From: Simkaniaceae bacterium | Lineage (GTDB): Bacteria; Chlamydiota; Chlamydiia; Chlamydiales; JACRBE01 | Direction of reading: 5' to 3' | DNA: 64,000 nucleotides | NCBI GenBank assembly: GCA_021734805.1 | Contig: JAIPIG010000005.1 | Span: forward strand, 29 to 64,028 | Part shown: positions 63,509 to 63,873 of the stretch, in pieces | Position numbering within the stretch: position 1 is the stretch's first letter | How the letters are laid out: each line of letters opens with the position of its first letter | The notes under the pieces: model-generated | Databases searched by the model: none | What the model saw: the letters and a program-made list of their open reading frames with translations, nothing else | Told to the model about the DNA's origin: nothing | Program-made: the position numbers and the translations under genes

Positions 63509-63873
63509 TATATACCGAAATAAATTGAAGAATTGGTTTTTATCTTCGCCGGCATCTTCGACTTTTTACCCTTAATTTTTTGACCTATCTTCAATAGGAT
63601 CAAAAAAATTAAGCCGGCTAAAGCCTGATAAAAACTCGAAGCGCCATCAACTCGACTTTGCAACTTTTTGGGCCCGCCTGCCTCGTCTATTTGCTCTCGG
63701 ACGCTCGACCGTAGGTCGAGCTAGGAGATTATTAAAACCGGGAAGGGGTAAAAAACCCCTTCCCGGTTTTAATAACTCCCCCGAAAACAAATATCTCGAG
63801 GCCTTCGGGTCCAAAAAGTTGCAAAGTCGAGATCAAAGCTAAAATCCCAATTCTTCAATTCATTTCGGTATAT
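63509..63873. mobile_element. MITE-like family A copy interrupted by a family B element
   Basis: Both A termini are present (tataccgaaataaattgaagaattgg ... ccaattcttcaattcatttcggtata). The interior is split at 63650/63832. Confidence 0.9.
63651..63831 (-). mobile_element. MITE-like family B copy inserted in family A, with 5-bp TSD atcaa
   Basis: Perfect 21-bp TIRs ctcgactttgcaactttttgg. Inverted relative to the 36064-36246 copy. atcaa occurs at 63646-63650 and 63832-63836, but only once at the intact site in 35437-35611. Confidence 0.9.

Follow-up and report, generated by a model that had tools for sequence, protein, structure and literature searches.

Close to the right end of the 64,000-nt stretch of Simkaniaceae bacterium DNA analyzed here (contig JAIPIG010000005.1; hereafter the window), in the spacer between dapB and a tRNA gene, two sets of inverted repeats lie one within the other, which raises the question of whether one small mobile element has jumped into another and, if so, by what means such elements travel. 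The initial annotation of this stretch had read the arrangement as a miniature inverted-repeat transposable element (MITE) of one family, A, interrupted by a MITE of a second family, B. The analysis reported below makes it highly probable that this is indeed a MITE-in-MITE insertion, in which B, a non-autonomous element bounded by terminal inverted repeats (TIRs), transposed into A with a 5-bp target-site duplication (TSD), presumably mobilized in trans, and that B has spread between lineages.

Anatomy of the nested insertion

The composite element extends from position 63511 to 63872, slightly inside the limits of 63509–63873 first given for it, the nested structure itself standing as described; it carries no strand assignment, and the outer A arms, 32 nt long, are 91% complementary. 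Its left part (63511–63650, plus strand, 140 bp) is 97% identical to positions 35437–35575 of an intact family A copy elsewhere in the window, and its right part (63832–63872, plus strand, 41 bp) is 95% identical to positions 35571–35611 of the same copy. The latter (35437–35611, plus strand, 175 bp) reads GCGCCATCAAAGCTAAAA, exactly as annotated. Between the two parts stands the 181-bp family B element (63651–63831), whose ends, CTCGACTTTGCAACTTTTTGG and CCAAAAAGTTGCAAAGTCGAG, form a perfect 21-bp inverted repeat (63651–63671 and 63811–63831) that can be followed, at 89%, over 35 nt; B folds back on itself over its full length and holds a central perfect hairpin, AAAACCGGGAAGGGG-loop-CCCCTTCCCGGTTTT (63734–63770). 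The pentamer ATCAA precedes B at 63646–63650 and follows it at 63832–63836, and, as for the composite, no strand is assigned to these inner features. When B and one ATCAA were removed in silico, the remaining sequence aligned end to end with the copy at 35437–35611, differing by five substitutions and one one-base indel; the junctions and this excision agree on a 181-bp B with perfect 21-bp TIRs placed inside A with 5 bp duplicated. If the TA dinucleotides at 63511–63512 and 63871–63872 are an A-type TSD, as they appear to be, A proper occupies 63513–63870 of the composite.

A further B copy (36064–36246, minus strand, 183 bp) lies in the opposite orientation to the nested one and is 93% identical to it; the duplication reported for it was found on both sides, as TTTAT at 36059–36063 and 36247–36251. 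Chance is excluded as the source of the termini and of the flanking duplications. With up to three mismatches allowed, the window holds seven matches to the B terminus and five to the A terminus, none being expected (100 shuffles each), and the probability of a perfect 5-bp flank match given the base composition (GC 0.433) is about 1e-3. Neither A (175 bp) nor B (181 bp) spans an open reading frame (ORF) of 90 aa or more, and both form near-complete hairpins when folded as single-stranded DNA (B, −76.7 kcal/mol, z = −17.3; A at 35437–35611, z = −10).

The insertion fills the 5′ region of dapB (62775–63488, minus strand; DapB_N and DapB_C domains). Because the 362-bp composite starts 22 bp upstream of the dapB start codon, transcription of this gene would have to either begin inside the composite or read through it. 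The other side of the spacer is formed by the 5′ half of a tRNA gene (63963–64000, plus strand; RF00005, model positions 1–37), cut at its 3′ side by the end of the window.

Family B as a mobile family in Chlamydiae

The B terminus was scanned in a collection of one genome per species, where at least 120 stretches matched. Nearly all of the matches listed fall in metagenome-assembled genomes (MAGs) labeled Chlamydiae, Chlamydiales, Parachlamydiales, Rhabdochlamydiaceae or Simkaniaceae, or in 'Verrucomicrobiae' MAGs that are syntenic with the window; the few in other phyla fit the 20-nt pattern only and are attributable to chance. Loci fetched from this collection (labeled L001 and onward), together with the window, yielded 87 copies with both ends, which are most often 181 bp long and otherwise lie between 64 and 208 bp. 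Perfect TSDs flank 50 of the 87 copies, of 5 bp in 42 cases and of 6 bp in eight, and another 22 copies show a match in four of five positions, against 0–1 perfect matches per 87 in shifted-position controls. The target shared by the 5-bp duplications is N-T-W-A-N, with T at position 2 in 40 of the 42 and A at position 4 in 36, and both TSDs of the window, ATCAA and TTTAT, conform to it.

These duplications bear directly on a different origin for the composite, namely recombination or gene conversion between dispersed repeats, with ATCAA arising by coincidence or as microhomology in an illegitimate event. Chimeric copies without TSDs do exist, for instance a B half joined to a different end, termed B2, at L049 2565–2726, and about a third of the B copies lack intact TSDs. 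However, the insertion is base-precise, a colinear A being left once B and one ATCAA are taken out; ATCAA fits a motif derived independently from 42 other insertions; and the frequency of TSDs (42/87 vs. 0–1/87) is out of reach of the controls. Set against these observations, an origin by recombination deserves hardly any credence, and insertion by transposition is the reading followed below.

The distribution of B copies is likewise that of a mobile element. All 78 classifiable copies are intergenic, and for 41 of 48 full-length copies the nearest relative lies in the same genome, identities being 0.90–0.985 within genomes and 0.74–0.90 between them; in other words, B copies cluster by genome, reflecting lineage-specific amplification. 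Where synteny is kept, the insertion sites are non-orthologous: in the genome MGME (L068) a copy lies between the genes for the ABC ATPase and GT9, whose window counterparts overlap, and in the genome CAVSUE (L112) a copy separates SHMT from clpP, whose counterparts in the window have 16 bp between them. B constitutes a true MITE family, found in many environmental Chlamydiae genomes. The initial proposal of transposition by a non-autonomous element is upheld by the duplications, the shared target, the intergenic placement and the differing sites in syntenic regions; that proposal had named other copies devoid of flanking duplications and of conserved TIRs as the sign of recombination, and across the B copies both TSDs and conserved TIRs were found.

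Two further observations concern the surroundings of B copies. A groEL gene is present in B-terminus loci of six genomes (L037, L080, L087, L090, L113, L116), with the L080 copy 62 bp away from it; this could point to a hot spot beside a strongly expressed gene, or be coincidental, as groEL has multiple paralogs. Just upstream of the MGME copy at L068, a long perfect palindrome, CCTAGAAACGGCAGTTCGAG...CTCGAACTGCCGTTTCTAGG (6360–6435), possibly represents another small repeat family.

Duplication of TA by family A and reciprocal nesting

A-type elements, which read TATACCG...CGGTATA and have TIRs of about 26 nt ending in TTGG, were found in MGME (L005, L010, L063), in CAVSUE (L023, L039), in JACVQJ (L047, resembling the A2 element of the window described below), in a metagenome contig (L131) and in the window itself, where the TIRs of A are 31–32 nt at 87–91% and every copy takes the form TA-TACCG...CGGTA-TA. 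One CAVSUE B copy with an intact TTAAA duplication (L023 447–789) holds a 164-bp A-type element at 547–710. Uninterrupted B copies of the same genome read CCTGTTTTAAA-TA-A(T)CTCC, that of L084 matching the flanks of the interrupted copy exactly, and the interrupted copy reads ...TTTAAA-TA-[TACCGG...CCGGTA]-TA-ATCTCC... From this comparison of empty and filled B it follows that A-type elements insert at TA and duplicate it. Nesting between the A-type and B families therefore occurs in both directions. In L039, a 50-bp A-type mini copy directly abuts a B copy.

Insertion at TA with duplication of TA is the signature of IS630/Tc1-mariner-type transposition. MITEs derived from this group resemble A in their TA duplication, the TIRs of A being about 26–31 bp; unlike in the group itself, no IS630-family transposase with TACCG termini was found, and it is the TSD that links A to it. 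No pair of TATACCG-type ends 0.45–3.5 kb apart occurs in the collected related DNA. Two other CAVSUE B copies carry different internal inserts (L107 3891–4243, about 178 bp; L023 3729–4019, about 110 bp), so that nesting is recurrent; these inserts abound in palindromes such as CCCGGCCCTTAAGGGCCGGG and may represent further small mobile families.

In the succession of events that we propose, a family A MITE of about 171 bp, with TA on each side, would have inserted first, into a TA dinucleotide lying 22 bp upstream of dapB, and the 181-bp B would then have entered the right arm of A, the order being conjectural and the outcome of the second step visible in the junctions. A transposase supplied in trans would have made cuts staggered by 5 bp at the N-T-W-A-N site ATCAA, and repair would have duplicated those 5 bp. 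The enzymes involved may be of the DDE type, working by cut-and-paste or copy-out and encoded elsewhere in the genome: for A, presumably an IS630/Tc1-mariner-like transposase with a TA target, and for B, presumably the enzyme of an insertion sequence (IS) that makes 5–6-bp staggered cuts. The direct observations from which this scheme sets out are the TIRs and TSDs, the restoration of A, the target motif, the clustering by genome, the non-orthologous sites and the reverse nesting with its TA duplication.

Search for a mobilizing enzyme

No transposase was detected among the 40 window ORFs scanned against Pfam, in agreement with what had been stated for the window, and the only recombinase is a XerC/D-like protein (5172–6086). 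A multi-copy ORF screen of all collected loci returned only a DUF4143 cassette, GroEL and ordinary orthologs, and the plasmid and viral collections gave no match for A or B. Judging from their sequences, both A and B would depend on mobilization in trans.

Several candidates for an autonomous partner were considered and rejected. TIR pairs about 3.5 kb apart (L023, L039, L055) proved to belong to distinct MITEs that surround housekeeping genes. Solo TIRs whose interiors are not those of B (L001, L015, L036, L044, L078, L079 and others) are accompanied by ordinary genes, with no transposase-like ORF except the L001 candidate discussed below. A 107-aa IS4-family remnant at L083 3522–3845, weakly matching transpos_IS4_1 (E = 4e-4), lies between a UvrD-like helicase gene and the MITE, 22 bp outside the B copy, and has no other copies in the collected DNA. 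Other transposase-profile matches in the collected loci, such as that to an ABC ATPase, are due to chance.

With CTCGACTTTG...CAAAGTCGAG taken as the B-type end pair, the only long B-ended element found is one of 1,644 bp in MGME (L001 3061–4704, contig MGME01000030.1; L124 and L144 are the same site). Its B-type TIRs match at 20/25, and the TSD CTTAT on both sides fits N-T-W-A-N. The single ORF (3141–4469) encodes a 442-aa AAA_14 + DUF4143 protein, which matches the PADLOC defense candidate PDC-S01 over its full length (E = 1e-168). DUF4143 belongs to the PD-(D/E)XK superfamily (PMC3424549). This architecture raised the possibility that the protein mobilizes the CTCGACTTTG-ended superfamily as a transposase of a new class, with the B MITEs as its non-autonomous derivatives. 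Along with the termini and the perfect TSD, such a role would suit an ORF that fills the element, a protein combining an ATPase domain with a nuclease-like EVDFV...PLEVK motif, and further occurrences of the element's 82-bp B2 end in that genome (in L100, in L105 and, joined to a B half, in L049). The DUF4143 gene is itself clearly mobile: the cassette, consisting of the ORF and about 125 bp upstream with GTGAAAAAT...CAC repeats, recurs in more than 20 unrelated contexts (L124–L145) at up to 96% nucleotide identity, some copies adjoining tRNA genes, and a fragment of it is also present in L070.

It is these other contexts, however, that speak against the enzyme. Neither B-type ends nor detectable terminal repeats were found on the cassettes there, no CTCGACTTTG-type terminus lies within 600 bp in any of 22 of them, and the block of homology stops at the promoter region and at the stop codon; B-type ends surround the gene at one site only. 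An exact 11-mer inverted-repeat search around the cassettes was empty as well; the same search would miss the imperfect TIR of L124, and we do not rely on it. Furthermore, the full-length PDC-S01 match fits cargo, the interior of B is unrelated to the subterminal sequence of the L001 element, and we know of no established transposase with an AAA_14 + DUF4143 architecture. A transposase role for this protein is accordingly very unlikely in our judgment, and it is likelier that B-type ends act as a trans-mobilized vehicle moving a candidate defense gene between obligate intracellular chlamydiae. The L001 element is most likely a cargo-carrying cassette, the alternative being a secondary insertion of the mobile defense gene into a B-type shell; the L049 sequence at 2565–2726, considered as the 'empty shell' of this element, was set aside as the chimera without TSD mentioned above. 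Mobile insertion cassettes, reportedly known from the Bacillus cereus MIC231 literature, are TIR-bounded elements that lack a transposase and carry passenger genes. The L001 element shares with them the IS/MITE-type TIRs, the TSD, a single passenger gene and the absence of a recognizable transposase, one insertion site being observed; it differs from them as a single instance whose passenger, the PDC-S01 candidate, is also mobile without B-type ends.

Probable spread between lineages

Orthologous proteins of the window and of MGME or CAVSUE average 46–48% identity, and the best-conserved genes (sctN, SHMT, clpP, ABC ATPase, DAHP synthase) reach 67–70% DNA identity, with the type III secretion system (T3SS) ATPase gene at 70% between genomes. 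In comparison, the identity of window B is 88% with MGME copies and 85% with those of CAVSUE (about 85–89% overall), and its interior is conserved as well as its TIRs (window vs. MGME: TIR 0.945, interior 0.857). The simplest explanation for a conservation of B above that of the T3SS ATPase gene is an active element moving between lineages. As far as these identities can tell, an active B source most likely moved horizontally among chlamydial lineages after their divergence, strong selection on many B copies being the less likely alternative.

Selection would take the leading part if B were mainly a functional module, such as a bidirectional terminator, an attenuator or a structured RNA, conserved by purifying selection and not through recent mobility or horizontal transfer. 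Its strong central hairpin and whole-element fold, an interior 78% conserved between genomes and the placement of copies in convergent spacers and between operon genes (ABC/GT9 in L068, SHMT/clpP in L112) are features that such a module might well have. Nevertheless, although the hairpin is strong and terminator-like by eye, its T run pairs within the stem, and a scan for terminator-like sites called none in either full-length B copy of the window; no Rfam family comes near its threshold for B, let alone reaches it. The hairpin is lost in many copies (38 of 87, including that at 7385–7515 of the window) with no bias by gene orientation, and copies are divided among tandem, divergent and convergent spacers (36/28/14) much as in the background (253/109/65). 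In any case, B is shown to be mobile by its TSDs and genome-specific bursts. A primarily functional B is thus highly improbable, and the exaptation of individual copies is possible and compatible with the transposition reading.

A number of points weigh against the reading of a nested transposition followed by spread between lineages. As its empty site, the nested insertion was given a paralogous A copy, that at 35437–35611, and not an orthologous locus. A single near-identical strain is available for comparison, GCA_021734195.1, one contig of which matches the window at 99.9% identity over 5.1 kb and has the same A and B copies at 35–36 kb; the nested site falls outside its assembly. Copy numbers drawn from the genome collection are lower bounds. 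An autonomous partner or IS with matching TIRs, the search for which followed from the initial annotation, was found neither in about 1.1 Mb of related loci nor in catalogued plasmids or viral contigs. Finally, the case for horizontal transfer draws on a handful of orthologs and is compatible with strong selection on B.

Copies of A and B elsewhere in the window

In total, the window contains four B-derived copies and six A-type copies or fragments. The copies first listed are all present, and the list missed several others: a third intact A copy (10448–10622, plus strand), 90% identical to that at 35437 and located 13 bp beyond the stop of dapF; an isolated A end near 17091–17110; a 76-bp degenerate B mini copy without TSD (23729–23804, plus strand); and A2 (50289–50465, plus strand), a related 177-bp element of the TATACCG...CGGTATA superfamily, with its similar copy in JACVQJ. 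The pairing of A and B annotated at 7292–7515 holds insofar as both families are there; the A member is, more precisely, a 52-bp internally deleted mini copy (TATACC...CGGTATA; 7288–7339, plus strand), followed after 45 bp by a 131-bp B copy (7385–7515, plus strand) that lacks the central hairpin and an intact TSD. A preference of B for A-containing spacers, offered as one explanation for such pairs, found no statistical support in the window, as three of the four B copies lie in those spacers, which make up 34% of the spacer bp (permutation P = 0.12). Shared permissive AT-rich intergenic sites, in line with the other explanation put forward at the outset, account better for the co-occurrence, and the reverse nesting in CAVSUE reinforces this view.

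Other repeats accompany these copies. Directly after the right end of A2, a tandem repeat of AAAAATTCCAACTCTTGAATCAC (50466–50495) resembles what is left of a second A2 end, and this A2 cluster lies just downstream of a tRNA-Gly gene (50138–50209). A third repeat family, 'C', is present at 35163–35328 and 46272–46429, the two copies being about 165 bp long and 85–94% identical, and one of them adjoins A at 35437. The window further holds two paralogous SNF2-family helicase genes (11965–15660 and 50574–54116), 38.5 kb apart and with blocks of 72–79% nucleotide identity, and an unusually long secretin gene (18414–23678; 1,754 aa) in which a 50-nt motif occurs five times at a spacing of about 250 bp (19930–20978), corresponding to repeated Secretin_N domains. 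Besides this secretin, the chlamydial-type T3SS is represented by SctN, SctQ, a YscO-like protein and CdsD, and other genes encode a Pkn kinase, MreB, PEPCK, ClpXP, DapB and DapF.

The A and B copies also leave a trace in assemblies of the same organism. Short-read contigs from SRR12088349 (L169, L121) are 100% identical to the window and end at the MITEs: 13 bp before the A copy at 63511 (window 63498), inside B (7425) and inside A (10476). These breaks are expected because multi-copy repeats usually interrupt assemblies, and A and B repeats fragment short-read chlamydial MAGs in this way.

Relation to known elements and implications

A and B are new families of a well-known kind, and the nested insertion is a textbook footprint. 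Like the MITEs described in other bacteria (Correia elements of Neisseria, ERIC, Nezha, Chunjie; PMC10969869), they are small (about 50–210 bp) and non-coding, have TIRs and TSDs, fold as whole-element hairpins, occur in multiple intergenic copies and include internally deleted variants. TA termini are typical of bacterial MITEs (PMC5896051), and A-type elements likewise duplicate TA. No sequence relationship of A or B to any described family was found, and the B duplication of 5 bp, sometimes 6 bp, at N-T-W-A-N is unusual. In the searchable literature we found no paper on the A or B terminal sequences, nor any report of MITEs for Chlamydiae, and a 2024 review of prokaryotic MITEs mentions neither Chlamydia nor nested elements (PMC10969869). 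MITEs thus appear not to have been described before in Chlamydiae.

For a MITE of an intracellular bacterium that has itself received another element, the closest precedent comes from Coxiella burnetii, also obligately intracellular, whose MITE families are QMITE1 and QMITE2; the latter, 150–190 bp long and thus near B in size, has 7–11-nt direct repeats and a GTAG repetitive extragenic palindromic (REP) core, and its copies act as hot spots where IS1111 inserts (PMC5896051). Compared by description, the chlamydial case differs in the 5-bp, rarely 6-bp, TSDs of B, in the host phylum, in that the inserted element is itself a MITE and in that the nesting is reciprocal. An identity of B with the Coxiella QMITEs was rejected, as the genome scan places B in Chlamydiae and the repeats of QMITE2 are of 7–11 nt. 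Among other groups, Tn3-derived inverted-repeat miniature elements (TIMEs) produce 5-bp duplications and IS1634 elements 5–6-bp ones, at AT-rich targets, and Tn3-family TIRs are about 38 bp and begin with GGGG. B resembles both in its duplications and AT-rich targets. It departs from the Tn3 family in its termini, which begin with CTCGAC and read CTCGACTTTGCAAC..., and from IS1634 in that a transposase with matching ends, IS1634-like or other, was not found.

A few environmental lineages apart, Chlamydiae are commonly considered to hold little mobile DNA. The TSDs, the reciprocal nesting, the genome-specific bursts and the non-orthologous sites indicate, therefore, that transposition has been active in several environmental chlamydial lineages. 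What lends the case a moderate interest is that the families are distributed more widely, nest reciprocally and give evidence of spread between lineages. Copies of A and B may affect expression, since they are placed in 5′ regions, as is the composite 22 bp from the start of dapB, and also between the genes of operons. Furthermore, B would be a compact marker for the exchange of DNA among obligate intracellular bacteria, which presumably takes place in hosts that they share, and the ends of A and B are candidates from which to build transposon tools for a phylum not readily accessible to genetic manipulation.

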